From Lytechinus pictus (lineage: Eukaryota): 64,000 bases of DNA. Positions 3,677-45,367 of the stretch are shown one piece after another; position 1 is the stretch's first letter; each line of letters starts with the position of its first letter. The notes under the pieces are model-generated. The model had not been told where the DNA came from. It saw only the letters and a program-made list of their open reading frames with translations, and did not search any database. The DNA is taken from NCBI RefSeq assembly GCF_037042905.1, contig NC_087251.1, positions 31,684,001 to 31,748,000 of the forward strand. The letters are read 5' to 3'. A program made the position numbers and the translations under genes.

Positions 3677-3973
3677 ATGGCAGTTGATCGACTGTACTAC
3701 CTCGCTCTGATCGTCGTCGTCGTCATATCGTCGTCAAACGCCTTCGACGTTAGATCCAACTCAACTCATTTTGGTGTTTCTCTAAATGGAGTTGAACTCA
3801 TACGCCATTCTCCAGAGGACACATTCCTTTATGTTGGGTCTGGACTACCAACATTTGAAGGCCAATTTGGCAATTATGATGTCGATGATTACATTGAAGA
3901 ACGTATCGCTCTAGTCGACTTCGTTGCTGATGGTTTAAACGTTTTCACGTTTAGTCGACAAAATATGTTACAG
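3677..3973 (+). CDS. SQase-like gene exon 1 (signal peptide plus N-terminal domain)
   Basis: MAVDRLYYLALIVVVVISSSNAF...YVGSG...GNYDVDDYIEERIAL resembles the YihQ N-terminus; donor CAG|GTCAGT at 3974. Confidence 0.85.
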
Positions 3974-15900: not shown

Positions 15901-18900
15901 TATAAGTAATACAGGCGAATTCCCTATAGTGGATGGAATACCTGCCAAAACTCCTCAGAAGCAAACAATTTCTAACTGATATCAATATGTTTAGTCATCA
16001 AGTGGTGCAAAAAATGGATTTAATGGCTTAGCAAGGCTATATCAGGTAAAGTTAGTAGGTATGTGTATGTAAGCCTAGGAATGCATATAGACTGGTCAAT
16101 GAGAGTCTAGGCCTCTTTATGTTCTGATTCATCATTGGTTTGTGCTAGTGTATGATCACCTACTTAATGTTAGAAAGACCTTTACAAATTGCTCATGTTA
16201 AAATTGTTCTTTGGAATGGGGTAGAGAGCTAGAGATAGAAATTTCTGAACTTTACTGAAGAGAACTAGAGTGGAAGCTTCAAGAAGGTATTTAGAAAAAG
16301 GCACAGAGTAAGGTAAGGTATATAATAGTGCTCAACTAAGGAGGGAGGGGGGTGGCTGTGTGATCCAATCTTAGTCTAGCCCCCCCCCCCCCCTCTTTAT
16401 AAGCCATGACATCTATAAAATTATCTTTCTTTCTCTCTCCTCTTTCTATCTATTTATGTATCTCTTTCTTCTTACATCTGATAGGCAATAGCCCTAGGAA
16501 GATTTTGATATAATAGTTCAAATGCAAATGTACTAAAGTAATATAATATGTTATTGTTTCCTCATTCAATCTCATGTACTTCTAGTAATTATGTTTGAGG
16601 CAGTTCTGGTATCCTGATATCTACACCAAATTTACATACACCTTTATATTACAAGGAGAATAGGGGCCTATATTGTCATTGCATTCACTGTTGGGCTATA
16701 TGCAGGAAGGATATGTATACATCCATATAGTGAATATAGCATGTATGAGTAGCACATTAAAATGGGTCATTGCATAGAAAATTCATTTTCAATGCATTTC
16801 TTTGTGCTAGTGTAAGTGTACAGATATAAAAGAATAGCAAAGTAGCTATTAAAAAAAATAAAATTCATAGGTCATATAATATAGGTGCCATGAGCCTAAT
16901 TACATCAGGAGGGCTAAAGATATTTGTTCGACCCAACCCATTCGAAATTTTTCAATTTGATATTGCTGATTGACAAAAATGTATGAATATGATTCAAAAT
17001 CTAACACTGATTCTAGAAATGGTAACTACTGAACTTCCTTTGCCCAAATTGGGAAGATATATCAATGATTTGGCACTATTTTTTGACTGGCGGAAGAATT
17101 GGGGCTATTTTACTGTTTCAGTTGATGAATTTGATCCTATCATAGTTATCTTCATAAATGACGATTTATTTTTAAAATGAGCTGGCTACGATACCCTTCT
17201 CTGGTCAGATATGGAATGTCAGATATATATCCTATCCAAAGGTAGTAAACATTTGACCCTCTAATTTCACATTTATTTTTTATGAATTTTTGTTAAGTGC
17301 CATTTTAACACACAAGTCTATGGGGAATGTTTTACGCGCGTGAGACCTATAAGTAATACAGGCGAATTCCCTATAGTGGATGGAATACCTGCCAAAACTC
17401 CTCAGAAGCAAACAATTTCTAACTGATATCAATATGTTTAGTCATCAAGTGGTGCAAAAAATGGATTTAATGGCTTAGCAAGGCTATATCAGGTAAAGTT
17501 AGTAGGTATGTGTATGTAAGCCTAGGAATGCATATAGACTGGTCAATGAGAGTCTAGGCCTCTTTATGTTCTGATTCATCATTGGTTTGTGCTAGTGTAT
17601 GATCACCTACTTAATGTTAGAAAGACCTTTACAAATTGCTCATGTTAAAATTGTTCTTTGGAATGGGGTAGAGAGCTAGAGATAGAAATTTCTGAACTTT
17701 ACTGAAGAGAACTAGAGTGGAAGCTTCAAGAAGGTATTTAGAAAAAGGCACAGAGTAAGGTAAGGTATATAATAGTGCTCAACTAAGGAGGGAGGGGGGT
17801 GGCTGTGTGATCCAATCTTAGTCTAGCCCCCCCCCCCCTCTTTATAAGCCATGACATCTATAAAATTATCTTTCTTTCTCTCTCCTCTTTCTATCTATTT
17901 ATGTATCTCTTTCTTCTTACATCTGATAGGCAATAGCCCTAGGAAGATTTTGATATAATAGTTCAAATGCAAATGTACTAAAGTAATATAATATGTTATT
18001 GTTTCCTCATTCAATCTCATGTACTTCTAGTAATTATGTTTGAGGCAGTTCTGGTATCCTGATATCTACACCAAATTTACATACACCTTTATATTACAAG
18101 GAGAATAGGGGCCTATATTGTCATTGCATTCACTGTTGGGCTATATGCAGGAAGGATATGTATACATCCATATAGTGAATATAGCATGTATGAGTAGCAC
18201 ATTAAAATGGGTCATTGCATAGAAAATTCATTTTCAATGCATTTCTTTGTGCTAGTGTAAGTGTACAGATATAAAAGAATAGCAAAGTAGCTATTAAAAA
18301 AAATAAAATTCATAGGTCATATAATATAGGTGCCATGAGCCTAATTACATCAGGAGGGCTAAAGATATTTGTTCGACCCAACCCATTCGAAATTTTTCAA
18401 TTTGATATTGCTGATTGACAAAAATGTATGAATATGATTCAAAATCTAACACTGATTCTAGAAATGGTAACTACTGAACTTCCTTTGCCCAAATTGGGAA
18501 GATATATCAATGATTTGGCACTATTTTTTGACTGGCGGAAGAATTGGGGCTATTTTACTGTTTCAGTTGATGAATTTGATCCTATCATAGTTATCTTCAT
18601 AAATGACGATTTATTTTTAAAATGAGCTGGCTACGATACCCTTCTCTGGTCAGATATGGAATGTCAGATATATATCCTATCCAAAGGTAGTAAACATTTG
18701 ACCCTCTAATTTCACATTTATTTTTTATGAATTTTTGTTAAGTGCCATTTTAACACACAAGTCTATGGGGAATGTTTTACGCGCGTGAGACCTATAAGTA
18801 ATACAGGCGAATTCCCTATAGTGGATGGAATACCTGCCAAAACTCCTCAGAAGCAAACAATTTCTAACTGATATCAATATGTTTAGTCATCAAGTGGTGC

Positions 18901-21900
18901 AAAAAATGGATTTAATGGCTTAGCAAGGCTATATCAGGTAAAGTTAGTAGGTATGTGTATGTAAGCCTAGGAATGCATATAGACTGGTCAATGAGAGTCT
19001 AGGCCTCTTTATGTTCTGATTCATCATTGGTTTGTGCTAGTGTATGATCACCTACTTAATGTTAGAAAGACCTTTACAAATTGCTCATGTTAAAATTGTT
19101 CTTTGGAATGGGGTAGAGAGCTAGAGATAGAAATTTCTGAACTTTACTGAAGAGAACTAGAGTGGAAGCTTCAAGAAGGTATTTAGAAAAAGGCACAGAG
19201 TAAGGTAAGGTATATAATAGTGCTCAACTAAGGAGGGAGGGGGGTGGCTGTGTGATCCAATCTTAGTCTAGCCCCCCCCCCCCTCTTTATAAGCCATGAC
19301 ATCTATAAAATTATCTTTCTTTCTCTCTCCTCTTTCTATCTATTTATGTATCTCTTTCTTCTTACATCTGATAGGCAATAGCCCTAGGAAGATTTTGATA
19401 TAATAGTTCAAATGCAAATGTACTAAAGTAATATAATATGTTATTGTTTCCTCATTCAATCTCATGTACTTCTAGTAATTATGTTTGAGGCAGTTCTGGT
19501 ATCCTGATATCTACACCAAATTTACATACACCTTTATATTACAAGGAGAATAGGGGCCTATATTGTCATTGCATTCACTGTTGGGCTATATGCAGGAAGG
19601 ATATGTATACATCCATATAGTGAATATAGCATGTATGAGTAGCACATTAAAATGGGTCATTGCATAGAAAATTCATTTTCAATGCATTTCTTTGTGCTAG
19701 TGTAAGTGTACAGATATAAAAGAATAGCAAAGTAGCTATTAAAAAAAATAAAATTCATAGGTCATATAATATAGGTGCCATGAGCCTAATTACATCAGGA
19801 GGGCTAAAGATATTTGTTCGACCCAACCCATTCGAAATTTTTCAATTTGATATTGCTGATTGACAAAAATGTATGAATATGATTCAAAATCTAACACTGA
19901 TTCTAGAAATGGTAACTACTGAACTTCCTTTGCCCAAATTGGGAAGATATATCAATGATTTGGCACTATTTTTTGACTGGCGGAAGAATTGGGGCTATTT
20001 TACTGTTTCAGTTGATGAATTTGATCCTATCATAGTTATCTTCATAAATGACGATTTATTTTTAAAATGAGCTGGCTACGATACCCTTCTCTGGTCAGAT
20101 ATGGAATGTCAGATATATATCCTATCCAAAGGTAGTAAACATTTGACCCTCTAATTTCACATTTATTTTTTATGAATTTTTGTTAAGTGCCATTTTAACA
20201 CACAAGTCTATGGGGAATGTTTTACGCGCGTGAGACCTATAAGTAATACAGGCGAATTCCCTATAGTGGATGGAATACCTGCCAAAACTCCTCAGAAGCA
20301 AACAATTTCTAACTGATATCAATATGTTTAGTCATCAAGTGGTGCAAAAAATGGATTTAATGGCTTAGCAAGGCTATATCAGGTAAAGTTAGTAGGTATG
20401 TGTATGTAAGCCTAGGAATGCATATAGACTGGTCAATGAGAGTCTAGGCCTCTTTATGTTCTGATTCATCATTGGTTTGTGCTAGTGTATGATCACCTAC
20501 TTAATGTTAGAAAGACCTTTACAAATTGCTCATGTTAAAATTGTTCTTTGGAATGGGGTAGAGAGCTAGAGATAGAAATTTCTGAACTTTACTGAAGAGA
20601 ACTAGAGTGGAAGCTTCAAGAAGGTATTTAGAAAAAGGCACAGAGTAAGGTAAGGTATATAATAGTGCTCAACTAAGGAGGGAGGGGGGTGGCTGTGTGA
20701 TCCAATCTTAGTCTAGCCCCCCCCCCCTCTTTATAAGCCATGACATCTATAAAATTATCTTTCTTTCTCTCTCCTCTTTCTATCTATTTATGTATCTCTT
20801 TCTTCTTACATCTGATAGGCAATAGCCCTAGGAAGATTTTGATATAATAGTTCAAATGCAAATGTACTAAAGTAATATAATATGTTATTGTTTCCTCATT
20901 CAATCTCATGTACTTCTAGTAATTATGTTTGAGGCAGTTCTGGTATCCTGATATCTACACCAAATTTACATACACCTTTATATTACAAGGAGAATAGGGG
21001 CCTATATTGTCATTGCATTCACTGTTGGGCTATATGCAGGAAGGATATGTATACATCCATATAGTGAATATAGCATGTATGAGTAGCACATTAAAATGGG
21101 TCATTGCATAGAAAATTCATTTTCAATGCATTTCTTTGTGCTAGTGTAAGTGTACAGATATAAAAGAATAGCAAAGTAGCTATTAAAAAAAATAAAATTC
21201 ATAGGTCATATAATATAGGTGCCATGAGCCTAATTACATCAGGAGGGCTAAAGATATTTGTTCGACCCAACCCATTCGAAATTTTTCAATTTGATATTGC
21301 TGATTGACAAAAATGTATGAATATGATTCAAAATCTAACACTGATTCTAGAAATGGTAACTACTGAACTTCCTTTGCCCAAATTGGGAAGATATATCAAT
21401 GATTTGGCACTATTTTTTGACTGGCGGAAGAATTGGGGCTATTTTACTGTTTCAGTTGATGAATTTGATCCTATCATAGTTATCTTCATAAATGACGATT
21501 TATTTTTAAAATGAGCTGGCTACGATACCCTTCTCTGGTCAGATATGGAATGTCAGATATATATCCTATCCAAAGGTAGTAAACATTTGACCCTCTAATT
21601 TCACATTTATTTTTTATGAATTTTTGTTAAGTGCCATTTTAACACACAAGTCTATGGGGAATGTTTTACGCGCGTGAGACCTATAAGTAATACAGGCGAA
21701 TTCCCTATAGTGGATGGAATACCTGCCAAAACTCCTCAGAAGCAAACAATTTCTAACTGATATCAATATGTTTAGTCATCAAGTGGTGCAAAAAATGGAT
21801 TTAATGGCTTAGCAAGGCTATATCAGGTAAAGTTAGTAGGTATGTGTATGTAAGCCTAGGAATGCATATAGACTGGTCAATGAGAGTCTAGGCCTCTTTA

Positions 21901-24900
21901 TGTTCTGATTCATCATTGGTTTGTGCTAGTGTATGATCACCTACTTAATGTTAGAAAGACCTTTACAAATTGCTCATGTTAAAATTGTTCTTTGGAATGG
22001 GGTAGAGAGCTAGAGATAGAAATTTCTGAACTTTACTGAAGAGAACTAGAGTGGAAGCTTCAAGAAGGTATTTAGAAAAAGGCACAGAGTAAGGTAAGGT
22101 ATATAATAGTGCTCAACTAAGGAGGGAGGGGGGTGGCTGTGTGATCCAATCTTAGTCTAGCCCCCCCCCCCCCTCTTTATAAGCCATGACATCTATAAAA
22201 TTATCTTTCTTTCTCTCTCCTCTTTCTATCTATTTATGTATCTCTTTCTTCTTACATCTGATAGGCAATAGCCCTAGGAAGATTTTGATATAATAGTTCA
22301 AATGCAAATGTACTAAAGTAATATAATATGTTATTGTTTCCTCATTCAATCTCATGTACTTCTAGTAATTATGTTTGAGGCAGTTCTGGTATCCTGATAT
22401 CTACACCAAATTTACATACACCTTTATATTACAAGGAGAATAGGGGCCTATATTGTCATTGCATTCACTGTTGGGCTATATGCAGGAAGGATATGTATAC
22501 ATCCATATAGTGAATATAGCATGTATGAGTAGCACATTAAAATGGGTCATTGCATAGAAAATTCATTTTCAATGCATTTCTTTGTGCTAGTGTAAGTGTA
22601 CAGATATAAAAGAATAGCAAAGTAGCTATTAAAAAAAATAAAATTCATAGGTCATATAATATAAGTAATACAGGCGAATTCCCTATAGTGGATGGAATAC
22701 CTGCCAAAACTCCTCAGAAGCAAACAATTTCTAACTGATATCAATATGTTTAGTCATCAAGTGGTGCAAAAAATGGATTTAATGGCTTAGCAAGGCTATA
22801 TCAGGTAAAGTTAGTAGGTATGTGTATGTAAGCCTAGGAATGCATATAGACTGGTCAATGAGAGTCTAGGCCTCTTTATGTTCTGATTCATCATTGGTTT
22901 GTGCTAGTGTATGATCACCTACTTAATGTTAGAAAGACCTTTACAAATTGCTCATGTTAAAATTGTTCTTTGGAATGGGGTAGAGAGCTAGAGATAGAAA
23001 TTTCTGAACTTTACTGAAGAGAACTAGAGTGGAAGCTTCAAGAAGGTATTTAGAAAAAGGCACAGAGTAAGGTAAGGTATATAATAGTGCTCAACTAAGG
23101 AGGGAGGGGGGTGGCTGTGTGATCCAATCTTAGTCTAGCCCCCCCCCCCTCTTTATAAGCCATGACATCTATAAAATTATCTTTCTTTCTCTCTCCTCTT
23201 TCTATCTATTTATGTATCTCTTTCTTCTTACATCTGATAGGCAATAGCCCTAGGAAGATTTTGATATAATAGTTCAAATGCAAATGTACTAAAGTAATAT
23301 AATATGTTATTGTTTCCTCATTCAATCTCATGTACTTCTAGTAATTATGTTTGAGGCAGTTCTGGTATCCTGATATCTACACCAAATTTACATACACCTT
23401 TATATTACAAGGAGAATAGGGGCCTATATTGTCATTGCATTCACTGTTGGGCTATATGCAGGAAGGATATGTATACATCCATATAGTGAATATAGCATGT
23501 ATGAGTAGCACATTAAAATGGGTCATTGCATAGAAAATTCATTTTCAATGCATTTCTTTGTGCTAGTGTAAGTGTACAGATATAAAAGAATAGCAAAGTA
23601 GCTATTAAAAAAAATAAAATTCATAGGTCATATAATATAGGTGCCATGAGCCTAATTACATCAGGAGGGCTAAAGATATTTGTTCGACCCAACCCATTCG
23701 AAATTTTTCAATTTGATATTGCTGATTGACAAAAATGTATGAATATGATTCAAAATCTAACACTGATTCTAGAAATGGTAACTACTGAACTTCCTTTGCC
23801 CAAATTGGGAAGATATATCAATGATTTGGCACTATTTTTTGACTGGCGGAAGAATTGGGGCTATTTTACTGTTTCAGTTGATGAATTTGATCCTATCATA
23901 GTTATCTTCATAAATGACGACGATTTATTTTTAAAATGAGCTGGCTACGATACCCTTCTCTGGTCAGATATGGAATGTCAGATATATATCCTATCCAAAG
24001 GTAGTAAACATTTGACCCTCTAATTTCACATTTATTTTTTATGAATTTTTGTTAAGTGCCATTTTAACACACAAGTCTATGGGGAATGTTTTACGCGCGT
24101 GAGACCTATAAGTAATACAGGCGAATTCCCTATAGTGGATGGAATACCTGCCAAAACTCCTCAGAAGCAAACAATTTCTAACTGATATCAATATGTTTAG
24201 TCATCAAGTGGTGCAAAAAATGGATTTAATGGCTTAGCAAGGCTATATCAGGTAAAGTTAGTAGGTATGTGTATGTAAGCCTAGGAATGCATATAGACTG
24301 GTCAATGAGAGTCTAGGCCTCTTTATGTTCTGATTCATCATTGGTTTGTGCTAGTGTATGATCACCTACTTAATGTTAGAAAGACCTTTACAAATTGCTC
24401 ATGTTAAAATTGTTCTTTGGAATGGGGTAGAGAGCTAGAGATAGAAATTTCTGAACTTTACTGAAGAGAACTAGAGTGGAAGCTTCAAGAAGGTATTTAG
24501 AAAAAGGCACAGAGTAAGGTAAGGTATATAATAGTGCTCAACTAAGGAGGGAGGGGGGTGGCTGTGTGATCCAATCTTAGTCTAGCCCCCCCCCCCCTCT
24601 TTATAAGCCATGACATCTATAAAATTATCTTTCTTTCTCTCTCCTCTTTCTATCTATTTATGTATCTCTTTCTTCTTACATCTGATAGGCAATAGCCCTA
24701 GGAAGATTTTGATATAATAGTTCAAATGCAAATGTACTAAAGTAATATAATATGTTATTGTTTCCTCATTCAATCTCATGTACTTCTAGTAATTATGTTT
24801 GAGGCAGTTCTGGTATCCTGATATCTACACCAAATTTACATACACCTTTATATTACAAGGAGAATAGGGGCCTATATTGTCATTGCATTCACTGTTGGGC

Positions 24901-27900
24901 TATATGCAGGAAGGATATGTATACATCCATATAGTGAATATAGCATGTATGAGTAGCACATTAAAATGGGTCATTGCATAGAAAATTCATTTTCAATGCA
25001 TTTCTTTGTGCTAGTGTAAGTGTACAGATATAAAAGAATAGCAAAGTAGCTATTAAAAAAAATAAAATTCATAGGTCATATAATATAGGTGCCATGAGCC
25101 TAATTACATCAGGAGGGCTAAAGATATTTGTTCGACCCAACCCATTCGAAATTTTTCAATTTGATATTGCTGATTGACAAAAATGTATGAATATGATTCA
25201 AAATCTAACACTGATTCTAGAAATGGTAACTACTGAACTTCCTTTGCCCAAATTGGGAAGATATATCAATGATTTGGCACTATTTTTTGACTGGCGGAAG
25301 AATTGGGGCTATTTTACTGTTTCAGTTGATGAATTTGATCCTATCATAGTTATCTTCATAAATGACGATTTATTTTTAAAATGAGCTGGCTACGATACCC
25401 TTCTCTGGTCAGATATGGAATGTCAGATATATATCCTATCCAAAGGTAGTAAACATTTGACCCTCTAATTTCACATTTATTTTTTATGAATTTTTGTTAA
25501 GTGCCATTTTAACACACAAGTCTATGGGGAATGTTTTACGCGCGTGAGACCTATAAGTAATACAGGCGAATTCCCTATAGTGGATGGAATACCTGCCAAA
25601 ACTCCTCAGAAGCAAACAATTTCTAACTGATATCAATATGTTTAGTCATCAAGTGGTGCAAAAAATGGATTTAATGGCTTAGCAAGGCTATATCAGGTAA
25701 AGTTAGTAGGTATGTGTATGTAAGCCTAGGAATGCATATAGACTGGTCAATGAGAGTCTAGGCCTCTTTATGTTCTGATTCATCATTGGTTTGTGCTAGT
25801 GTATGATCACCTACTTAATGTTAGAAAGACCTTTACAAATTGCTCATGTTAAAATTGTTCTTTGGAATGGGGTAGAGAGCTAGAGATAGAAATTTCTGAA
25901 CTTTACTGAAGAGAACTAGAGTGGAAGCTTCAAGAAGGTATTTAGAAAAAGGCACAGAGTAAGGTAAGGTATATAATAGTGCTCAACTAAGGAGGGAGGG
26001 GGGTGGCTGTGTGATCCAATCTTAGTCTAGCCCCCCCCCCCCTCTTTATAAGCCATGACATCTATAAAATTATCTTTCTTTCTCTCTCCTCTTTCTATCT
26101 ATTTATGTATCTCTTTCTTCTTACATCTGATAGGCAATAGCCCTAGGAAGATTTTGATATAATAGTTCAAATGCAAATGTACTAAAGTAATATAATATGT
26201 TATTGTTTCCTCATTCAATCTCATGTACTTCTAGTAATTATGTTTGAGGCAGTTCTGGTATCCTGATATCTACACCAAATTTACATACACCTTTATATTA
26301 CAAGGAGAATAGGGGCCTATATTGTCATTGCATTCACTGTTGGGCTATATGCAGGAAGGATATGTATACATCCATATAGTGAATATAGCATGTATGAGTA
26401 GCACATTAAAATGGGTCATTGCATAGAAAATTCATTTTCAATGCATTTCTTTGTGCTAGTGTAAGTGTACAGATATAAAAGAATAGCAAAGTAGCTATTA
26501 AAAAAAATAAAATTCATAGGTCATATAATATAGGTGCCATGAGCCTAATTACATCAGGAGGGCTAAAGATATTTGTTCGACCCAACCCATTCGAAATTTT
26601 TCAATTTGATATTGCTGATTGACAAAAATGTATGAATATGATTCAAAATCTAACACTGATTCTAGAAATGGTAACTACTGAACTTCCTTTGCCCAAATTG
26701 GGAAGATATATCAATGATTTGGCACTATTTTTTGACTGGCGGAAGAATTGGGGCTATTTTACTGTTTCAGTTGATGAATTTGATCCTATCATAGTTATCT
26801 TCATAAATGACGATTTATTTTTAAAATGAGCTGGCTACGATACCCTTCTCTGGTCAGATATGGAATGTCAGATATATATCCTATCCAAAGGTAGTAAACA
26901 TTTGACCCTCTAATTTCACATTTATTTTTTATGAATTTTTGTTAAGTGCCATTTTAACACACAAGTCTATGGGGAATGTTTTACGCGCGTGAGACCTATA
27001 AGTAATACAGGCGAATTCCCTATAGTGGATGGAATACCTGCCAAAACTCCTCAGAAGCAAACAATTTCTAACTGATATCAATATGTTTAGTCATCAAGTG
27101 GTGCAAAAAATGGATTTAATGGCTTAGCAAGGCTATATCAGGTAAAGTTAGTAGGTATGTGTATGTAAGCCTAGGAATGCATATAGACTGGTCAATGAGA
27201 GTCTAGGCCTCTTTATGTTCTGATTCATCATTGGTTTGTGCTAGTGTATGATCACCTACTTAATGTTAGAAAGACCTTTACAAATTGCTCATGTTAAAAT
27301 TGTTCTTTGGAATGGGGTAGAGAGCTAGAGATAGAAATTTCTGAACTTTACTGAAGAGAACTAGAGTGGAAGCTTCAAGAAGGTATTTAGAAAAAGGCAC
27401 AGAGTAAGGTAAGGTATATAATAGTGCTCAACTAAGGAGGGAGGGGGGTGGCTGTGTGATCCAATCTTAGTCTAGCCCCCCCCCCCTCTTTATAAGCCAT
27501 GACATCTATAAAATTATCTTTCTTTCTCTCTCCTCTTTCTATCTATTTATGTATCTCTTTCTTCTTACATCTGATAGGCAATAGCCCTAGGAAGATTTTG
27601 ATATAATAGTTCAAATGCAAATGTACTAAAGTAATATAATATGTTATTGTTTCCTCATTCAATCTCATGTACTTCTAGTAATTATGTTTGAGGCAGTTCT
27701 GGTATCCTGATATCTACACCAAATTTACATACACCTTTATATTACAAGGAGAATAGGGGCCTATATTGTCATTGCATTCACTGTTGGGCTATATGCAGGA
27801 AGGATATGTATACATCCATATAGTGAATATAGCATGTATGAGTAGCACATTAAAATGGGTCATTGCATAGAAAATTCATTTTCAATGCATTTCTTTGTGC

Positions 27901-30900
27901 TAGTGTAAGTGTACAGATATAAAAGAATAGCAAAGTAGCTATTAAAAAAAATAAAATTCATAGGTCATATAATATAGGTGCCATGAGCCTAATTACATCA
28001 GGAGGGCTAAAGATATTTGTTCGACCCAACCCATTCGAAATTTTTCAATTTGATATTGCTGATTGACAAAAATGTATGAATATGATTCAAAATCTAACAC
28101 TGATTCTAGAAATGGTAACTACTGAACTTCCTTTGCCCAAATTGGGAAGATATATCAATGATTTGGCACTATTTTTTGACTGGCGGAAGAATTGGGGCTA
28201 TTTTACTGTTTCAGTTGATGAATTTGATCCTATCATAGTTATCTTCATAAATGACGATTTATTTTTAAAATGAGCTGGCTACGATACCCTTCTCTGGTCA
28301 GATATGGAATGTCAGATATATATCCTATCCAAAGGTAGTAAACATTTGACCCTCTAATTTCACATTTATTTTTTATGAATTTTTGTTAAGTGCCATTTTA
28401 ACACACAAGTCTATGGGGAATGTTTTACGCGCGTGAGACCTATAAGTAATACAGGCGAATTCCCTATAGTGGATGGAATACCTGCCAAAACTCCTCAGAA
28501 GCAAACAATTTCTAACTGATATCAATATGTTTAGTCATCAAGTGGTGCAAAAAATGGATTTAATGGCTTAGCAAGGCTATATCAGGTAAAGTTAGTAGGT
28601 ATGTGTATGTAAGCCTAGGAATGCATATAGACTGGTCAATGAGAGTCTAGGCCTCTTTATGTTCTGATTCATCATTGGTTTGTGCTAGTGTATGATCACC
28701 TACTTAATGTTAGAAAGACCTTTACAAATTGCTCATGTTAAAATTGTTCTTTGGAATGGGGTAGAGAGCTAGAGATAGAAATTTCTGAACTTTACTGAAG
28801 AGAACTAGAGTGGAAGCTTCAAGAAGGTATTTAGAAAAAGGCACAGAGTAAGGTAAGGTATATAATAGTGCTCAACTAAGGAGGGAGGGGGGTGGCTGTG
28901 TGATCCAATCTTAGTCTAGCCCCCCCCCCCCCTCTTTATAAGCCATGACATCTATAAAATTATCTTTCTTTCTCTCTCCTCTTTCTATCTATTTATGTAT
29001 CTCTTTCTTCTTACATCTGATAGGCAATAGCCCTAGGAAGATTTTGATATAATAGTTCAAATGCAAATGTACTAAAGTAATATAATATGTTATTGTTTCC
29101 TCATTCAATCTCATGTACTTCTAGTAATTATGTTTGAGGCAGTTCTGGTATCCTGATATCTACACCAAATTTACATACACCTTTATATTACAAGGAGAAT
29201 AGGGGCCTATATTGTCATTGCATTCACTGTTGGGCTATATGCAGGAAGGATATGTATACATCCATATAGTGAATATAGCATGTATGAGTAGCACATTAAA
29301 ATGGGTCATTGCATAGAAAATTCATTTTCAATGCATTTCTTTGTGCTAGTGTAAGTGTACAGATATAAAAGAATAGCAAAGTAGCTATTAAAAAAAATAA
29401 AATTCATAGGTCATATAATATAAGTAATACAGGCGAATTCCCTATAGTGGATGGAATACCTGCCAAAACTCCTCAGAAGCAAACAATTTCTAACTGATAT
29501 CAATATGTTTAGTCATCAAGTGGTGCAAAAAATGGATTTAATGGCTTAGCAAGGCTATATCAGGTAAAGTTAGTAGGTATGTGTATGTAAGCCTAGGAAT
29601 GCATATAGACTGGTCAATGAGAGTCTAGGCCTCTTTATGTTCTGATTCATCATTGGTTTGTGCTAGTGTATGATCACCTACTTAATGTTAGAAAGACCTT
29701 TACAAATTGCTCATGTTAAAATTGTTCTTTGGAATGGGGTAGAGAGCTAGAGATAGAAATTTCTGAACTTTACTGAAGAGAACTAGAGTGGAAGCTTCAA
29801 GAAGGTATTTAGAAAAAGGCACAGAGTAAGGTAAGGTATATAATAGTGCTCAACTAAGGAGGGAGGGGGGTGGCTGTGTGATCCAATCTTAGTCTAGCCC
29901 CCCCCCCCTCTTTATAAGCCATGACATCTATAAAATTATCTTTCTTTCTCTCTCCTCTTTCTATCTATTTATGTATCTCTTTCTTCTTACATCTGATAGG
30001 CAATAGCCCTAGGAAGATTTTGATATAATAGTTCAAATGCAAATGTACTAAAGTAATATAATATGTTATTGTTTCCTCATTCAATCTCATGTACTTCTAG
30101 TAATTATGTTTGAGGCAGTTCTGGTATCCTGATATCTACACCAAATTTACATACACCTTTATATTACAAGGAGAATAGGGGCCTATATTGTCATTGCATT
30201 CACTGTTGGGCTATATGCAGGAAGGATATGTATACATCCATATAGTGAATATAGCATGTATGAGTAGCACATTAAAATGGGTCATTGCATAGAAAATTCA
30301 TTTTCAATGCATTTCTTTGTGCTAGTGTAAGTGTACAGATATAAAAGAATAGCAAAGTAGCTATTAAAAAAAATAAAATTCATAGGTCATATAATATAGG
30401 TGCCATGAGCCTAATTACATCAGGAGGGCTAAAGATATTTGTTCGACCCAACCCATTCGAAATTTTTCAATTTGATATTGCTGATTGACAAAAATGTATG
30501 AATATGATTCAAAATCTAACACTGATTCTAGAAATGGTAACTACTGAACTTCCTTTGCCCAAATTGGGAAGATATATCAATGATTTGGCACTATTTTTTG
30601 ACTGGCGGAAGAATTGGGGCTATTTTACTGTTTCAGTTGATGAATTTGATCCTATCATAGTTATCTTCATAAATGACGATTTATTTTTAAAATGAGCTGG
30701 CTACGATACCCTTCTCTGGTCAGATATGGAATGTCAGATATATATCCTATCCAAAGGTAGTAAACATTTGACCCTCTAATTTCACATTTATTTTTTATGA
30801 ATTTTTGTTAAGTGCCATTTTAACACACAAGTCTATGGGGAATGTTTTACGCGCGTGAGACCTATAAGTAATACAGGCGAATTCCCTATAGTGGATGGAA

Positions 30901-33900
30901 TACCTGCCAAAACTCCTCAGAAGCAAACAATTTCTAACTGATATCAATATGTTTAGTCATCAAGTGGTGCAAAAAATGGATTTAATGGCTTAGCAAGGCT
31001 ATATCAGGTAAAGTTAGTAGGTATGTGTATGTAAGCCTAGGAATGCATATAGACTGGTCAATGAGAGTCTAGGCCTCTTTATGTTCTGATTCATCATTGG
31101 TTTGTGCTAGTGTATGATCACCTACTTAATGTTAGAAAGACCTTTACAAATTGCTCATGTTAAAATTGTTCTTTGGAATGGGGTAGAGAGCTAGAGATAG
31201 AAATTTCTGAACTTTACTGAAGAGAACTAGAGTGGAAGCTTCAAGAAGGTATTTAGAAAAAGGCACAGAGTAAGGTAAGGTATATAATAGTGCTCAACTA
31301 AGGAGGGAGGGGGGTGGCTGTGTGATCCAATCTTAGTCTAGCCCCCCCCCCCCTCTTTATAAGCCATGACATCTATAAAATTATCTTTCTTTCTCTCTCC
31401 TCTTTCTATCTATTTATGTATCTCTTTCTTCTTACATCTGATAGGCAATAGCCCTAGGAAGATTTTGATATAATAGTTCAAATGCAAATGTACTAAAGTA
31501 ATATAATATGTTATTGTTTCCTCATTCAATCTCATGTACTTCTAGTAATTATGTTTGAGGCAGTTCTGGTATCCTGATATCTACACCAAATTTACATACA
31601 CCTTTATATTACAAGGAGAATAGGGGCCTATATTGTCATTGCATTCACTGTTGGGCTATATGCAGGAAGGATATGTATACATCCATATAGTGAATATAGC
31701 ATGTATGAGTAGCACATTAAAATGGGTCATTGCATAGAAAATTCATTTTCAATGCATTTCTTTGTGCTAGTGTAAGTGTACAGATATAAAAGAATAGCAA
31801 AGTAGCTATTAAAAAAAATAAAATTCATAGGTCATATAATATAGGTGCCATGAGCCTAATTACATCAGGAGGGCTAAAGATATTTGTTCGACCCAACCCA
31901 TTCGAAATTTTTCAATTTGATATTGCTGATTGACAAAAATGTATGAATATGATTCAAAATCTAACACTGATTCTAGAAATGGTAACTACTGAACTTCCTT
32001 TGCCCAAATTGGGAAGATATATCAATGATTTGGCACTATTTTTTGACTGGCGGAAGAATTGGGGCTATTTTACTGTTTCAGTTGATGAATTTGATCCTAT
32101 CATAGTTATCTTCATAAATGACGATTTATTTTTAAAATGAGCTGGCTACGATACCCTTCTCTGGTCAGATATGGAATGTCAGATATATATCCTATCCAAA
32201 GGTAGTAAACATTTGACCCTCTAATTTCACATTTATTTTTTATGAATTTTTGTTAAGTGCCATTTTAACACACAAGTCTATGGGGAATGTTTTACGCGCG
32301 TGAGACCCGATGCGCGTTATTATTATTACCCCGGCTTTATCTCGAGCTGCCTCTCCGCGCTAATGCATTCAATGAATTAATCCAGCTAGGTACCCATTCA
32401 CCTCACCTGGTTTGAGATAAGATAAACCCTGTACAGTAATTCTTACGAAAAATCCACTTTAGATCATTTTATGATAGTTTGTTGGGAACGGAAATTCTTA
32501 TATTGGCTGTACATGCAGGCGTGGATCCATGGGGCCGACGCCCCCCCCCCTTAAAAAGGGAGAGGGGGAAAGAAAGATTGGAAAGAAAAAGAAGGGGATG
32601 GGAGGAAAGAAAAGGGAAGGAAAGTGAGAGGGGGAAAGAAGGGGAAAGTGAAAGAGAAGGGAAGAAATGAGGGAGAGGAAGAAAGGAAACAGAGAAAGAA
32701 AATGAAAAGAAGGGAAATGAAGGGGGAAAGAAAGGGAAGAAAGAGAGATAGAAAGCAAAGGGAAAAGGGGAGGAAAAAGAAAAGAAAGGAGAATAGAGAT
32801 AGAGAAGGAAAAGAAGGGAGAGTGCGAGAGGAAAGGTGAGGCAGACAAAAGAGGAGGAAAAGAATGGGAAAGGAGAGACGAATCAAACAAAGGAAATAGA
32901 GAGGAAAAAGGAGAGAGAAGAGAATGGATAAGGGAGAGAGGAAAGAAAGGGCAGAGAAACAAAATGAAGGTCAAGACTGAGGGAGGGGGCTATAAACATT
33001 CATGGAAGAGAGGATGATTATAGAAGAAAAAGATAACACGGAATGAGAAAGAAAAAAAAGAGGATGAAAAAGAAATTTTAAAAAGGGATACCCTCTCTTA
33101 GCTTAGGTATAAACGGCAGGGCTCGCTGAGTTTGCCGGAGGCAAGGGGACCGTACCCCCCCTCCCCCCCATAAAAAAGGGGGAGAGAAAAAAAAGGCATT
33201 TGATGGGAAGGGAAATGAAAATAAAAGGAAAATTGAAAGGGGACTAATGGAGAAGGGGAGAAAGAGATCTTGCCGAAACGGTTCTGTTCCCCCTCCTCCA
33301 TGTAGTAGCAAAGGACAAGGTGGGGCAAAGATGCGTTTAAAAAATGAAGACGTCCGGGGCCGTACGGCCTAGTCATCATGCTGCTTGCTCACCCCTCCGA
33401 ATAATTAAAAGATAAGCACTTAGTCTAAAAAAAATAGGATAAAACGAAGGAGATGGAGGCGGAAATGAAGAGAAATAAATAAAGAAAAGAAAAATATAAA
33501 AATTAGACAGAAAAAAAGGAAAAGCGTTTGCGAAATGTGGTGTTAATTTCCCCCCACAAAATTGTGAACTTCGAGCCTGTTGTTCCGAATAAATGGCTGT
33601 GGGAAAGTCTCCATAAGATGTAGGCGGTCCGATGAGAGAAAAATAAAAAGAATAAAAGAAGAGGACAAAAATAAATAAAAAGATGAAGAATGAAGAAAAT
33701 CAGAGGAGGGGGATTTGCAAATTGCCTAAAAGGAACAAAATGAATATCTCGCGTACTACGCGGTTGAATTGTCCGTTTAATGAGATACACATTTAATATG
33801 TTTAGAGGATAAGACGGCTATAAAAATATAAAAGAACTTACGTTTCTGGTCGCGCTTCAAGCATTCATTATTTTGAACAAAATGAGATACCCATCCTGTT

Positions 33901-36900
33901 CACGATTACAAAAAGTAATTAAATTTCCCGTTTTCACGAACGATTTAACTTCTGCTCCCTCTCTGACTTTTATACAGGGGCGCATTTGAAAGGAATAAAA
34001 TATATGAAAGCATATTCATCCCATCTCTCGGTAAAATAAGACATAATTAATGATCATTGAAGCATTGCGAGTTACGCTTCTGTGACCACAAAAAAGTCTG
34101 AAAATATATAATTATCGACTGCACTTAATGAATTATAATCATTCATGCTAAACTGATCACAATTTGCAAGTATATATGTTTAAAACAAAGGCTATTCTTT
34201 TCTCTTTCGTAAGATAATGTGTATAATTTATTAGATTTCATGAAAGTCGGGTTAGGAGTTCAGACTTCGAGGCCAGCATCGTACATCCACTCATTTTTCA
34301 ATGTTGTAATTGAATTGAATTGAATAACTTAATTGTCCAGAAAGGAAATTCTTTCACAGGTAAAAATGTAGATACAAAACAAAAATGTGTATACAGTATC
34401 CCATTATATTGCATTATATATGATAATTCGATTTTGATGTCATCAACTGAGAGCAGAAAACTCTTCACTTTTGCCTGTGAGTACATACAATAAAACTGTA
34501 CACTGTTTTGATGAATTGTTACATATTTTTCTGTATATATTTGCCATTTTATATTGCATTATCTATGATAATTCGATTTTGATGTCATCTCCGAGCAGAA
34601 AACTCTTCACTTTGCTTGTGTGTACATACAATAAAACTGTACACTGTTTTGAATGAATTGTTACATATTCTTCTGTATATTTTTTTTTGCATGACTATCT
34701 ATAAGCTTTATCAACTTTTGAATTCAGGTTCAAATCCGCTTGGTGAGTGATGCTTCTGAATCCCCATACGTTGAGTTCACAAGTATAGCTGAAGGCATCA
34801 ATCGAATCTGGTTACGTCTGGTAGCAGAGAAAGATGAACATGTATTTGGTGGAGGCTCCCAGTTCTCTCATTTCAATATGAGAGGGTATAAATTCCCAAT
34901 CTGGATTCAAGAACAAGTAAGATTTTATATACCTTTCCTTGCTTAATTGGTACATGTTTCGTGTCCATGTTTCATTGCTTGCCATGTTGGTGATTTTAAA
35001 TTATTTCCTGATAAACAAAATGCAAAACTTTATTGCAAGCAAAATAGAGATGTAGATCTGGGGCCCGTTTCATAAAGGACTTGCAACTGTTGTAATTTTG
35101 CCATTGTGGCAACTACCATGGTAACCTTGATTCTGATTGGCTGATGAGCCCTGTTACCATGGTAGTTGCCATAATGGCAAAGTTACAACAGTTGAAAGTC
35201 CTTTATGAAACGGGCCCCCTCTCCTGTATTTTTTCCTGCTGTTGAGAGAGAGAGAGAGAGAAGGGGGGGGGGGGGGCTCTACCGTGTGACAAAAAAAAAA
35301 CTTGACACCTCACAAATCTCCAATTTAAGGAAAAATATATGTCATGAACGCATAATCATTATATATGGCTGGAAAATAATATCTTCTCTCAAATAATTCG
35401 ATACCATATTCATGTGGTATGTCTTAATAATCAGGAGGTATTCTTTGCAGCGATATAAATTTTGGTTTGCGCCAAAGTGGGGCATGACTGCAATGAATGA
35501 ATCCAGATGTCAATGATGTCATAATGCTACATGAGTTAGTAAACATATTTGGAAATCCCATTTCGATTAAATTAATTTGAGAATTGATACTAAAAAGTGT
35601 TTATTAAAAAATTAGTATGTAAATTATTGAAAAGAAAAGGTGTTTTGAAATTTGTTTTAATGCAACCCTTGTAGGATTATGACATCATTGATATCGGGAT
35701 ACATTCATTGCAGTCATGCCTTACTTTAGCACAAATCAAAATTTACATCACTGCAAAGAATACCTCCTGATCATCCAAGCATTAACACATAAAATATGGT
35801 ATCAAATTATTGGGAGAACATACTCTTTCAGACCATATATATTAATTATGTGTTCATGACACATTTTTTCCTTAAATCGGGGATTTGTGAGGTACAAAGT
35901 TTATTTTTACTCACACAGTATATCTGGTGTTAAAACAAGATGGAAGCAATGTCATTCTTCCTTGTTCGTTTGATGAGATAGATTCCCTTGACTCTTAAGA
36001 AGCAGGATGTTTGATATGTTTCACAAGATTACAAGAAGTACTTTGATCTGCAAGATAGATTTCCACATTTATTGCTGTAATATAACATTACCATGGAAAT
36101 GCAGTTTCCAACACATGAAAATTATGACGAGATACCAAACATGACTCACAAAGTGCTTTTTGTTTTCTGATGATGTTTTCATCAATTTGACAATCATCAT
36201 AATCAAATGCAATCTAGGTTTCCCAGTTCCTATAATGGAGAGAACTGACCACCTTTATTACGTCATGATTAGCTTATTTTTGAAGTTTCGACATAGTTTA
36301 AGCTGACAAAACATGCTACTTCATTTTCAACAGGGAGTTGGACGAGACAAGAACTACGAGATCACATTCAAAGCCGATCAGAGGGACGGTGGAGGTGGTG
36401 ACTACTATACAACCTATTGGGCTCAACCAACCTTTGTTTCCTCTCGTCTCTACTATGCTCACTTTGACATCACCACCTACTCTGAACTGGACTTTCGAGC
36501 CGATCACTTCCATGAGATCCACATCTGGGGAAATACTCTCAGCAAGTTCCATTTCTTCACTGGAAGTAATTACACCGATCTTCTCGGGGAGTTAACTGGG
36601 TACCTTGGAAGACAACCGATGCCTCCTGAATGGATCTATAATGGCACTATCTTAGGAGTCCAAGGGGGTACTGATATCATGCTTCAATACATAGACATGG
36701 CTGAAGTGAGTAAAGAATAATCTTAACCAACTGTAGGCCTACATAAAATGTCATAAATTTGACCTATATTGATTCTCAGGACTTCTTAACATTTAAATGC
36801 ATGTTATATTTTATAATTACAAAAGAAGTCAACGAGGAATTATATTTCTTCAAGCAACAGTTATAACAGTTATAACTTGACAAGCATGAAAAGGATGCCT

Positions 36901-38863
36901 GTCATTTATCCAGTATCAATGTGGCATAATCCTATAAGAGATGACTGATATTAATGACCAGAAATTATGCCTATTGAGTACCAGTACTATCATTTGCTTT
37001 TTTAATGTTGTCTAGCTATTGGAACTACTTTAAATTCCTTCTACTTGATACAGGAACATGGAATCAAAGTGAGTGGAGTCTGGATCCAGGATTGGGTTGG
37101 CCGTATCACCACGTCTTTTGGAAGACGTCTGTTCTGGAACTGGGAGTGGAACCCTGAGCAGTACCCCAACCTTGACACAGTGATACCGCAACTCAAACAG
37201 CGAGGTATCAGGGTGCTTGTCTATGCCAATCCAAACCTCAACAGATTAGGGAGTTTGTATGAGGAAGCAGCAGCAGGAGACTACCTCATCAAGAACATTT
37301 CTGGGGATCCATACATAGTTGACTATGGTGAGTTCTTCTGCGGAATCGTGGACTTCACAAACCCTGCGGCTGCTCAGTGGTACAAGGACCGTATCATTAA
37401 AAAAAATATGCTGGACCTGGGTGTCAGTGGTTGGATGGCTGATTTTGGAGAGTACCTCCCTATAGATGCGGTGTTTCATAGTGGAGCTAAGGGTACAGAT
37501 ATCCATAATCAATGGCCTGCCATCTGGGCTCAGGTGAACAGAGAAGGGGTGGAGGAGGGTGGCAAGATGGGTGATATCCTATTTTGGATGCGTGCCGGCT
37601 ATACAGGATCCCAGAGGTACAGTGTCATGACGTGGGCTGGTGATCAGTTTGTTGACTATGGCCTTGCTGATGGCATAGCATCCGTGATCCCCGGTACCCT
37701 ATCTTTGGGTATGTCAGGGTACGGAATGAACCATTTCGACATTGGAGGGTACACATCTCTCTTTGGAGTCACCAGGACTGAGGAACTCTTTCTCCGTTAT
37801 GCCGAGATGGCGGCCTTTACTACCATGATGCGCACTCATGAGGGTAACAGACCTGATGAGAACTGGCAGTTCTACTCAAGCTCACACACCATGTACGAGT
37901 TCGCCCGCCATACCAAGATATACGTGGCCCTCAATGACTACGTCAACACCACCCTGCGTGAGAACCATGAACACGGCATTCCCGTTCAACGTCCACTCTT
38001 CCTGCATTATGAGGACGACGAGCGCACCTATGACATCCAATACCAGTATATGTTCGGACCGGATCTTCTGGTCGCTCCAGTGATAGAGCAGGGTCAAGAA
38101 AACTGGGATGTTTATCTTCCTGTAGATGACTGGATATTCCTTTGGGATGAAGACATCACCTCAGATGGTGGAGAGACCATAACAGTTCCTTCTCCAATGG
38201 GTTACATACCAGTCTTCTTTAGGTCCCAATCTCCATGGGCTGACACTTTTAGACAGCTGAGAGATATCGAGGCAGGCAAGTACTATATTTCTCTTAAAAT
38301 GATCTGATACACTCCCCAAAATAAGTAAATTCACTAAAATTATATGGATCAGTAAATTCTTTGTAAGTTACAATTCTTTGTGATAGAGACATAAGATCTG
38401 GAATTTTCATGTAGACACAATTTACATGAAAGAGGTACGAGTATGGTTGACACACACACACACAAAATAAATGAAAGGCAGATGCGTTTTCTGGAGAGCA
38501 TGAAACACGATGGTAACGAGGTGTTTGTCAAACCTCAAAACATCTTTGAATGTTTCAGTTAAATATGAGAAAATATTCAGGTTTCATGTACATCAGAAAA
38601 TGAACTTTAAGAATGCAATGATTGTAATGTGCTTTTGATGCCCTATTATCCAGTCTGGGGACCAATTCTCCCTATTCACATGTGTTGTAATGAGCATGAT
38701 TGAAAATGTTATCTCATCTTTTTACATTTGCCTCTACATTTTTTCTGTTTATGCAGTAACGGTAACTCCGACCGAACAGATGACGACTGCTGGATGTCCC
38801 ACTATAATGGCATCATATTTACTTCTCGCTTTGTGTTGGACCCTAATGACATTATTGTGGTAG
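3677..38863 (+). CDS. GH31 sulfoquinovosidase-like (YihQ-like) alpha-glycosidase, secreted and probably GPI-anchored; join(3677..3973,34728..34916,36334..36705,37054..38275,38757..38863), about 728 aa
   Basis: Exons splice in frame (phases 0,0,0,1). Translation is colinear with E. coli YihQ as recalled: NRIWLRL, EQGVGR, GGDYY, LGRQP, LGVQGGT, WIQDW..TSFGRRLFWNW, GWMADFGEYLP (nucleophile), WAGDQ (acid/base), DIGGYT, MRTHEGNRP, RPLFLHYEDD. Hydrophobic N-terminal signal peptide. Confidence 0.92.
4149..4431. mobile_element. MITE with 3-bp TSD (Harbinger-like)
   Basis: GGCCCGTATTCTGAAGT ... ACTTCAGAATATACGGGCC, with AAT on both sides. Confidence 0.7.
4515..5420. mobile_element. Tc1/mariner-type MITE with long TIRs
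   Basis: TA|CAGTGCGTCCCAGAAAAAAACGAAACCGAG ... CTCGGTTTCGTTTTTTCTGGGACGCACTG|TA; inverted arms of about 300 bp. Confidence 0.88.
6933..7254. mobile_element. MITE with CACTGTTAGAAAA termini
   Basis: TA|CACTGTTAGAAAA ... TTTTCTAACAGTG|TA. Confidence 0.7.
7259..9125. mobile_element. Non-autonomous DNA transposon (~1.9 kb) with a nested insertion
   Basis: TA|GGGGAGATTGGGGTTAGTTGGAAC ... GTTCCAACTAACCCCAATCTCCTC|TA. The internal ~7405-7975 segment belongs to a family also seen at ~39697-40260 and ~59790-60310. Confidence 0.75.
9131..9315. mobile_element. Hairpin MITE with TAG...CTA termini
   Basis: About 88-bp near-perfect inverted arms TAGCCTATAAT.../...ATTATAGGCTA. Confidence 0.75.
9395..10070 (+). 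mobile_element. 5'-truncated L2-like LINE 3' fragment (degenerate)
   Basis: Frameshifted remnants ARIV..KHDLITPVLKDLHWLP, WGDRAFAHAGPALWN and SFKGNLKLHLF; 3' end taagcgccttgagc...gacgctatataaat. Confidence 0.8.
9574..9746. mobile_element. 173-bp MITE with 9-bp TSD inserted in the L2 fragment
   Basis: CTATCAACC|TAGTCTGCTGGGCAAACCCT ... AGGGTCTGTGCCTGCAGACTA|CTATCAACC. Confidence 0.8.
10127..10590. repeat. First 464-bp terminal direct-repeat module, with imperfect TIRs
   Basis: 5' end GGTGCCATGAGCCTAA versus reverse complement of the 3' end GGTCTCACGCGCGTAA (11/16 match); internal copies are flanked by TATA on both sides. Confidence 0.85.
10127..32307. mobile_element. 22.2-kb tandem array of a composite element: 14 x 464-bp terminal module and 16 x ~980-bp spacer, flanked by CGAT TSD
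   Basis: Starts and ends with a full module (GGTGCC...GAGACC); flanks read ttcCGAT|GG and CC|CGATgcg. Basic period 1444-1445 bp; higher-order period about 6757 bp. Confidence 0.9.
32560..33075. repeat. Purine-rich (GA) low-complexity tract
   Basis: Almost only G and A on the + strand; produces the spurious K/R/E-rich and F/L/S-rich ORFs. Confidence 0.9.
34400..34682. repeat. Direct tandem duplication of about 143 bp just upstream of SQase-like exon 2
   Basis: tatattgcattat..atgataattcgattttgatgtcatc...gttacatatt occurs twice. Confidence 0.8.
34728..34916 (+). CDS. SQase-like gene exon 2
   Basis: Acceptor ttcag|GTT; encodes NRIWLRLVAEKDEHVFGGGSQFSHFNMRG...IQEQ; donor CAA|GTAAGA. Confidence 0.9.
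35080..35217. mobile_element. Hairpin MITE
   Basis: GGGCCCGTTTCATAAAGGACTT ... AAGTCCTTTATGAAACGGGCCC; arms of about 60 bp. Confidence 0.8.
35280..35920. mobile_element. Tc1/mariner-like MITE with long diverged TIRs
   Basis: TACCGTGTGAC..CCTCACAAATCTCC versus GGGGATTTGTGAGG..TCACACAGTA; inverted similarity extends about 240 bp. Confidence 0.75.
36334..36705 (+). CDS. SQase-like gene exon 3
   Basis: Acceptor caacag|GGA; encodes GVGRDK...GGDYY...LGRQPMPPEWIYNGTILGVQGGT; donor GAA|GTGAGT. Confidence 0.92.
37054..38275 (+). CDS. SQase-like gene exon 4 (most of the catalytic TIM barrel and the C-terminal beta domain)
   Basis: Acceptor atacag|GAA; 1222-nt exon containing WMADFGE and WAGDQ; ends at the GC donor CAG|GCAAGT. 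Confidence 0.93.
38757..38863 (+). CDS. SQase-like gene exon 5 (Thr-rich stalk plus GPI-signal-like hydrophobic tail)
   Basis: Polypyrimidine tract then atgcag|TA; the phase-1 join gives VTVTPTEQMTTAGCPTIMASYLLLALCWTLMTLLW*. Confidence 0.75.
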
Positions 38864-39696
38864 CTATCCACATTTCTTTGTCAAGAAAGTCTACCCTACG
38901 CAAGACTATAAATATGCTTTTTTGTAGAATCATCTGCTCAGCGATCACCTGGCATAATGATGATAATGTGCACAAATTGAGCACACACTGTCCATGAATG
39001 CTCATGGCACTAGAATCCAGATTCAACCCGTTACTCCCAACATGACTTGTAAAAAATTGACTCTTGTAATCTAAAAGTTAACATAGTATGTAACACTATA
39101 ATCAGTAGCTTTCAAATACTGATCATTATATAGGCTATATTCAGTAGCTGTAGTTGGATAGAAGATCTGAACAAAACTAGCATGTTGGTGCCATGGTGAT
39201 GACAAATTTGATAGCCCATACTTTTTTTTTCAATGGACATCAAACCCTCATCTCTGGTAAGTCATTCCTTGCAATCATAAAAGATTATGTGTTTTCACAG
39301 AGTCAACACATGCAGGAGAAGCAAAACTATTCATTAAAATTTACATATAATGACCGATCTTGGTTCCTGAAATACGTCTTGCTTGAAAGTAGAGAACATC
39401 TCTTCACATGTACTTCAAGGAAATGAAGAAATCTGTGTTAAAGATCAACACATTCATAATCATTGTATAAGTTTGGTACATATTCTTCAAATAAATCTTT
39501 GTAATAAAACCTTATGACATGAGATGTTGGGTTGGTTCTGTCATAATAAAAACTCTAAACAATGTTTTAAGTGTTTCCCTGCAATAATCAAGACATGAGA
39601 CCCCATTGAGAATGTGGTTCTGAAAACCAGTTCAGGAGATGGTGATGAGAACTTTAATAAAGCAATTTTCTAAGCTGGTTTTGCAAAGTGGTTTAA

Positions 39697-40260
39697 AGGG
39701 ATGGGTCTAGGCTGGAGATATTTATATCTCAATTAATGGAGTAAAATTAACAAAGCAAAATGCTGAAAATTAGATCAAAATCGGATAACAAATAAAAAAA
39801 GTTATTGAAATTTAATGATTTGCATTATTTGGTGAAACAGTTCTAGGCATGTCTTTATGAATATTCATTAGGTGGGCTGATGTCATATCCCTACTTGTTC
39901 TTTTGTATTTTATTATATGAAATTAGGTTTATCCAAAAAATTTCTACCAAAAACAATTGGATTGACAACTGATTAAGAGCATTATTTATTGCTGCAACTT
40001 ATTTCATCATAATGGAGACACATCATCTAAATGAAACATTTATGATTTCATGTAATAACATAAGAAAAAGGAAAGTGGGGATGTGACATCATCAGCCCAC
40101 CTCATGAATATTTATGACGATGTGCATATAACTGTTTTCACAAAATATTGATAACATTTAGAATTCAATAACTTTGTTATCCAATTTTGATGAAATTTCC
40201 AGCATTTTGCTCTGTGAATTTTACTCTATTTATTTTTATATAAACATTTTCAGCCCGGGT
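39697..40260. mobile_element. Non-autonomous DNA transposon (same family as ~7405-7975)
   Basis: Shared gaatattcattaggtgggctgatg and gcaaaatgctgaaaatt motifs, with internal inverted arms. Confidence 0.65.
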
Positions 40261-45305: not shown

Positions 45306-45367
45306 AAGAAACCTACCTCTCACAATCCTATTCAGGGGATGTACTCAAAGGTACTGCACAGGGTTCA

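Follow-up and report, generated by a model that had tools for sequence, protein, structure and literature searches.

The window analysed here is a stretch of 64,000 nt from the sea urchin Lytechinus pictus (contig NC_087251.1, forward strand). It carries, on the plus strand, a five-exon gene for an enzyme resembling the sulfoquinovosidase (SQase) YihQ of Escherichia coli. A preliminary description of this DNA had proposed that a GC-AG intron at the end of the gene, when removed, joins the enzyme to a C-terminal tail resembling a signal for attachment of a glycosylphosphatidylinositol (GPI) anchor. The parts of the gene are as follows.

3677..3973, plus strand: exon 1, with the start codon, a signal-peptide-like segment and the start of the N-terminal beta-domain
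3974..34727, plus strand: intron 1, 30,754 nt, GT-AG
34728..34916, plus strand: exon 2
36334..36705, plus strand: exon 3, carrying Q272 (Q262 of YihQ)
37054..38275, plus strand: exon 4, with the GH31 TIM barrel and C-terminal domain (Pfam PF01055 and PF21365) and residues Q298, R311, W314, Y519 and H548, placed by alignment to PDB 5AED
37441..37443, plus strand: codon of the predicted nucleophile D416, in exon 4
37642..37644, plus strand: codon of the predicted acid/base D483, in exon 4
38276..38756, plus strand: intron 4, 481 nt, GC-AG, phase 1, falling in codon 694
38276..38307, plus strand: hypothetical read-through frame, 10 residues and a stop codon, unsupported as a real isoform
38757..38863, plus strand: coding part of exon 5, with stalk, candidate omega site, spacer, hydrophobic end and stop codon
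38789..38791, plus strand: codon of the candidate omega site A705, a pattern match
38864..39647 at least, plus strand: 3′ untranslated region

The five-exon translation is 728 amino acids long and shows no differences from RefSeq XP_054758413.2, an L. pictus record named 'sulfoquinovosidase-like', and the splice at the end of the gene is therefore already annotated. That record is an automatic annotation which includes the spliced tail, and its name is silent on anchoring. Exon 1 lies outside the read-mapped stretch and matches the RefSeq N-terminus exactly; intron 1 is deduced from this identity, not from reads. With 30.7 kb it far exceeds the other three introns (0.3–1.4 kb), and two long frames within it (3974–34727) had no Pfam match.

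Splicing of the final intron

Four sequencing runs were mapped on positions 34700–39700, three of them as raw reads (X19, X21 and X22) and one as contigs (X15). Run X22 comes from a close relative of another species, and about 6% of X19 and X21 was read. No listed run containing the stretch is recorded as RNA; we take X15 as RNA because all three introns of the mapped stretch are skipped in it. Joints were seen for each of these introns: 34916 to 36334 in 26 X22 reads and an X15 contig, 36705 to 37054 in 22 X22 reads, and the last in 12 raw X22 reads from six start places together with two X15 contigs of summed depth 840. This last joint was listed as 38271 to 38753 with a skip of 481 nt, but four letters fit on either side, and 38275 to 38757 is the sole placement with canonical GC and AG ends. 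At about 6% read, X19 and X21 gave near-zero exon depth and no joints, a result that we do not count for or against any location of the enzyme in the body. The proposed junction is thus found in data from two organisms as well as in the identical RefSeq protein.

The acceptor AG ends at 38756 and is preceded by a pyrimidine tract. There is one copy of the donor 9-mer CAG/GCAAGT in the window, 0.29 being expected, and since 26 of 100 shuffles also contain at least one copy the motif alone is weak proof; what decides is where it lies and what the reads show. Beyond the junction, an X15 contig covers 38762–39647 with no differences, and AATAAA hexamers lie at 39490, 39503, 39545 and 39656. When 38300–50000 was scanned for other last exons, three strong acceptor-like sites were found; a hydrophobic end follows from 38756 only, and none of the three leads to a KDEL-like end. 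Gene models of Lytechinus variegatus and Strongylocentrotus purpuratus carry an equivalent tail. Intron 4, of the GC-AG type, is real, and by far the larger share of transcripts have it removed.

The donor matches the 9 nt consensus at eight of nine positions, where the three GT donors of the gene match at eight, seven and six. In this it resembles the U2-type GC-AG introns treated in the text of PMC3167603, which describes GC donors as intrinsically weaker and compensated by consensus elsewhere: the mismatch is at +2 and the other eight positions are consensus. Such introns make up about 0.8% of the introns of human and mouse coding genes, and about 10% of human coding genes are stated to contain one (PMC7242645); the literature yielded no figure for urchins. 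The tail itself is shared more widely. In sea stars and sea cucumbers unspliced genomic proteins part from spliced ones at the same position, and the tail exon is therefore older than urchins. These read-through peptides cannot tell a GC from a GT donor, as GGT and GGC, like AGT and AGC, encode the same residue, and a search of metagenome contigs for the pattern of the exon 4 end gave no matches. Given this shared position, the hydrophobic tails of 33 of 45 animal proteins (see below) and the mammalian frequency, the idea that the tail owes its addition to the GC donor was overstated, and the GC donor looks incidental.

The preliminary description had also suggested that reading through the GC donor would give a soluble isoform. 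The stop codon at 38307 is as it described, but the isoform is unsupported. Depth in the inner bins of intron 4 is 2 in X15, against about 730–840 at the joint and in the untranslated region, contig depth being a poor measure of expression. In X22 it is 0.34, against about 11 on the flanking exon and beside 0.15 for the GT-AG intron 3, and intron reads of this other species may fail to map, so that retention would be underestimated there. Both limits weigh against our interpretation. Inner depth is at most about 3% of exon depth. No appreciable unspliced or intron-terminated transcripts appear in the two expressing runs, a result with which a rare or tissue-limited form would be compatible.

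The weak GC donor could nevertheless be a regulated switch, with retention or intronic polyadenylation yielding a secreted isoform under certain conditions or in certain tissues. Variant polyadenylation hexamers at 38324–38351 and an AATAAA at 38466 do lie inside intron 4, alternative C-termini are annotated in Ptychodera (X1–X3) and Mytilus, and the X15 bin 38207–38373 has a high summed depth of 929. That bin amounts to 2124 per exon base against 1970 on the acceptor side, and because the acceptor side is equally deep we explain it by overlapping contigs; a minor short form is compatible with these data, and the output does not separate the two. In X22 the bin with the read-through stop codon shows no surplus (4.38, with 4.5–5.0 expected from exon alone). 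No read-through form occurs in the six named urchin records among 13 cluster members, and the peptide is unconserved, differing after its first two residues between the window and seven unnamed Logan proteins, which we take as genomic because they are unspliced at both ends. Moreover, a separate urchin gene outside the window lacks the hydrophobic tail (P0124/P0259, P0260 and P0261) and is sister to the anchored gene in the tree. We therefore give the switch very little credence, and propose that the soluble urchin form comes from this second gene, not from read-through. The tail-less paralogue probably lies near the anchored gene in each species, and in P0259 and P0261 the position of YihQ Y508 is occupied by Phe.

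The enzyme and its predicted anchor

Residues 25–691 align to E. coli YihQ through its last residue (phmmer E 1.7e-217), and the match to NCBIfam PRK10426 scores 884 bits against a cut-off of 553. The similarity had been described as ending exactly at the donor; it does end near the junction, at I691, two residues before the intron. An AlphaFold2 model has a mean predicted local distance difference test score of 92.5, and Foldseek superimposes it on solved SQases with template-modelling (TM) scores of 0.88–0.90 and root mean square deviations of 1.2–2.0 Å, compared with a TM score of about 0.66 for the next family, other GH31 enzymes. All eight mapped substrate and catalytic residues of YihQ are kept: Q272, Q298, R311, W314, D416, D483, Y519 and H548. 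These correspond to substrate residues Q262, Q288, R301, W304, Y508 and H537 and catalytic residues D405 and D472 of the E. coli enzyme, the substrate list being that of the Fig. 4 legend in a recent preprint (Uchida et al., bioRxiv 10.64898/2026.02.11.705467, February 2026; hereafter Uchida et al., 2026). Alignment, profile and model together argue strongly for a GH31 SQase of the YihQ type, with predicted activity on sulfoquinovose glycosides.

An enzyme with this signature might still act on another substrate or as a transglycosylase, for example with glycolipids that belong to the animal itself. The literature examined contained no assay of the activity of an animal SQase, which also counts against our own assignment; relatives with KDEL-like ends would sit in the endoplasmic reticulum (ER), away from food; and the downstream sulfoquinovose pathway was not found in a clam, according to the preprint text (Uchida et al., 2026). 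The identity of all eight mapped residues with those of YihQ and the expression of related genes in digestive organs of other animals, reported in the same text, make this alternative highly improbable.

At the N-terminus, residues 1–22 (3677–3742) form a signal-peptide-like segment, upstream of the YihQ-like part that starts at residue 25. Its best 12-residue hydropathy is 3.03, at residues 6–17, and cleavage after A22 is suggested by eye; the signal peptide claimed earlier is thus predicted from hydropathy. The five N-glycosylation sequons are present as described, at N28, N241, N265, N367 and N584. Their number in the urchin protein alone is within chance (shuffle mean 3.2, with 21% of 2000 shuffles reaching five), and we rejected the count by itself as evidence for this reason. 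The median is five in 45 animal proteins against one in 28 bacterial proteins, and the N367 sequon is common to 24 of the 45, related rows not being independent; this excess and the shared sequon fit passage through the secretory pathway.

The C-terminal tail bears the features first described, namely a Thr-rich stalk, small residues (TAG) and a hydrophobic end with no cytosolic part. The stalk spans residues 694–704, 11 residues of which six are Thr or Pro, and is followed by A705-G706-C707, an 8-residue spacer and a 15-residue hydrophobic end (Y714–W728) with no Lys or Arg after it. As set out in the text of PMC9098846, a GPI signal has a small omega residue (A, C, D, G, N or S), a small omega+2, a spacer of 8–12 residues and a hydrophobic tail of 15–20; because Thr is absent from that list of small omega residues, the Ala of TAG, A705, is the omega candidate, rather than the Thr. 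In each of the three closest orthologues a small residue stands 23 residues from the end and neither Lys nor Arg follows the hydrophobic stretch; in another L. pictus record Ala705 is replaced by Gly, which is still permissive as omega. No internal hydrophobic 19-mer exceeds a hydropathy of 1.07. On this pattern the tail is likely to be a GPI signal.

Several observations weigh against this assignment. With omega at A705, a spacer of 8 and a tail of 15 lie at the low end of both published ranges (PMC9098846). Although A705 is the sole omega candidate in the protein, the rule used is loose, allowing Cys at omega+2, and a Pro follows; the same rule fires on tail-less proteins, such as those of Lingula, Bradysia and Procambarus. 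Diadema orthologues in the same clade have three Lys or Arg after the hydrophobic stretch and look transmembrane-like.

The tail might accordingly stay uncleaved, as a single C-terminal transmembrane anchor in the plasma membrane or in the membranes of lysosomes or food vacuoles. In the model, confidence is low at 702–711 and residues 708–727 form one 20-residue helix, with a best 19-mer hydropathy of 1.89; omega+2 is Cys; basic residues follow the helix in the Diadema, Acanthaster and Patiria proteins; and transmembrane helices are predicted in some echinoderms in the text of the preprint (Uchida et al., 2026). In Lytechinus and Strongylocentrotus nothing follows the helix, and the small residue at a fixed distance from the end and the Gly of the second L. 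pictus record also speak for cleavage. We consider an uncleaved anchor unlikely.

The gene is probably best explained as the anchored copy of a sea-urchin SQase, tethered at the cell surface. The protein would enter the ER by means of its N-terminal signal and be N-glycosylated there. GPI transamidase would then most likely cut after Ala705 and replace the last 23 residues with a GPI anchor, leaving the enzyme facing outward on a short Thr/Pro stalk. Its conserved residues and fold suggest that it could cleave sulfoquinovose from algal sulfolipid, or from the deacylated form, by a retaining mechanism in which D416 would be the nucleophile and D483 the acid/base. By analogy with other animals, a part in gut digestion may be supposed. 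The brush-border-like location first proposed would be a hypothesis for the urchin, the published expression data being those for clams, Aplysia and amphioxus (Uchida et al., 2026). The design would be old, in that the sampled animal enzymes, with their signal-like starts, fall into a single group and other echinoderms have the tail exon at the same place.

Relatives of the enzyme and other features of the window

A FastTree phylogeny of 74 proteins, which carried a long-branch warning, had a midpoint (arbitrary) root and included no non-bilaterian or fungal sequences, placed 45 animal proteins on one side of a single branch with a support of 100; groups within it broadly follow animal groups. 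This position points to an old shared origin, with no donor or date named. Recent horizontal transfer into urchins was rejected, as the gene has four introns and the tree follows animal groups. Among the 45 animal proteins, 33 have a hydrophobic tail, three a KDEL-like end and nine neither, in a sample that leans to tailed proteins since most came from a search for proteins of more than 713 residues; the Chionoecetes protein was moved out of the tailed class because its best hydrophobic window lies inside the enzyme domain. The proposed retooling of a bacterial-type enzyme for the cell surface, with its YihQ-type domain, signal-like start and tail, is therefore not special to the Lytechinus gene.

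KDEL-like ends occur in five of 275 proteins, spread over three lineages that are separate in the tree. The proteins, which end in KDEL, ADEL or HEEL and have hydrophobic N-termini, are P0123, P0257 and P0258 (Diadema), P0131 (Ptychodera) and P0127 (Antedon); the sequences suggest ER retention of these SQase-like proteins. In Ptychodera and Mytilus, isoforms annotated for one gene differ in nothing but the C-terminal tail, which is anchored in some and soluble in others. Three Ptychodera isoforms, X1–X3 (P0276, P0277 and P0131), part at the junction, where one goes on into a transmembrane-like tail, one stops after three residues and one ends in ADEL. In Mytilus (P0290–P0303 and P0139), records with a hydrophilic end come from four species (five of the 13 records listed); three of these species have an anchored form as well, and the forms part later in the stalk, not at the junction. 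All these alternatives in relatives are automatic gene models, not checked against reads.

A bolder reading, conceivable though on balance doubtful, makes the junction behind the enzyme domain an old point of exchange by which animal SQases are sent to different places, with the weak GC donor as a possible remnant or working form of that switch. The several ends would represent such destinations: GPI-type in Lytechinus and Strongylocentrotus, transmembrane in Diadema and sea stars, soluble in the urchin paralogue, and ER-retrieval-like in Diadema (KDEL), Ptychodera (ADEL) and Antedon (HEEL). Urchins might then have made the switch by duplicating the gene, Ptychodera by alternative ends, and Mytilus likewise but further along the stalk, a suggestion we hold no more firmly. 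If it is true, an ER-held SQase would not meet food, and a non-digestive task would follow, such as the remodelling or making of sulfoquinovose lipids in animal cells.

Outside animals, relatives from Leptospira and Anaerolineaceae (P0221, P0228 and P0232) have Gln for the sulfonate-binding Arg together with a hydrophobic N-terminus, and may be exported and differ in specificity. A Paramecium protein (P0135) groups with bacterial sequences, which suggests a separate acquisition.

Elsewhere in the window, the minus strand at 52790–54388 carries exons for a CDP-alcohol phosphatidyltransferase (PF01066), which is probably cardiolipin synthase; the gene is convergent with that of the SQase. Three inverted-repeat elements of the miniature inverted-repeat transposable element type lie at 35060–35218, 35280–35920 and 39710–40255, the first of which attracts reads by the hundred from other parts of the genome. 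No Pfam match was obtained for ten further long frames of the window.

Significance and comparison with known systems

Sulfoquinovose breakdown has long been treated as bacterial. If the proposed function is correct, a grazing urchin does the first step itself, and may feed the sugar to its gut bacteria and keep the lipid, an idea already advanced in the text of the 2026 preprint from predictions alone (Uchida et al., 2026). The urchin gene is a real and ordinary member of a recently described kind, and the anchored animal SQase is already in print as a prediction, in the text of that preprint. Our searches for sulfoquinovosidase with GPI found this preprint only; those for sulfoquinovosidase with KDEL, weak on subscription papers, and for yihQ with urchin found nothing, and among the matches listed for sea urchin with sulfoquinovose there were lipids and drugs only. 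What was not found in print is that relatives exchange the tail at or near the junction, a KDEL-like end taking its place in some. In itself the GC-AG intron adds little. What the gene does offer is a clean test case backed by RNA data, in which a laboratory species has an anchored form beside a soluble paralogue.

Three known systems invite comparison. The bacterial GH31 SQases of known structure (E. coli YihQ, PDB 5AED and 5OHT; BmSQase, 8R56; Eubacterium rectale, 6PNR; Agrobacterium, 5OHS) share 46–49% identity with the urchin enzyme, the TM scores given above extending over about 670 columns, and have the same active-site residues. They differ in being cytosolic, as stated in the preprint (Uchida et al., 2026); in our sample, 24 of 28 bacterial proteins have no hydrophobic N-terminus and 25 of 28 end within six residues of the end of YihQ.

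A further likeness is to the animal SQases of that preprint, the text of which covers 65 animal species, most with signal peptides, and describes a single GH31 barrel, conserved key residues, anchors predicted by NetGPI for many of the molluscs and a part of the echinoderms and chordates, and expression in the digestive organs of clams, Aplysia and amphioxus. Its main text makes no mention of sea urchins, introns or KDEL, while its figures, perhaps Fig. 3, or its supplements may include L. pictus (Uchida et al., 2026).

In its overall plan the predicted urchin protein also resembles a familiar type of animal hydrolase, with a putative signal peptide, a hydrolase domain, a short stalk and a candidate GPI-type end. 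Alkaline phosphatase and trehalase are GPI-anchored digestive ectoenzymes of this design.

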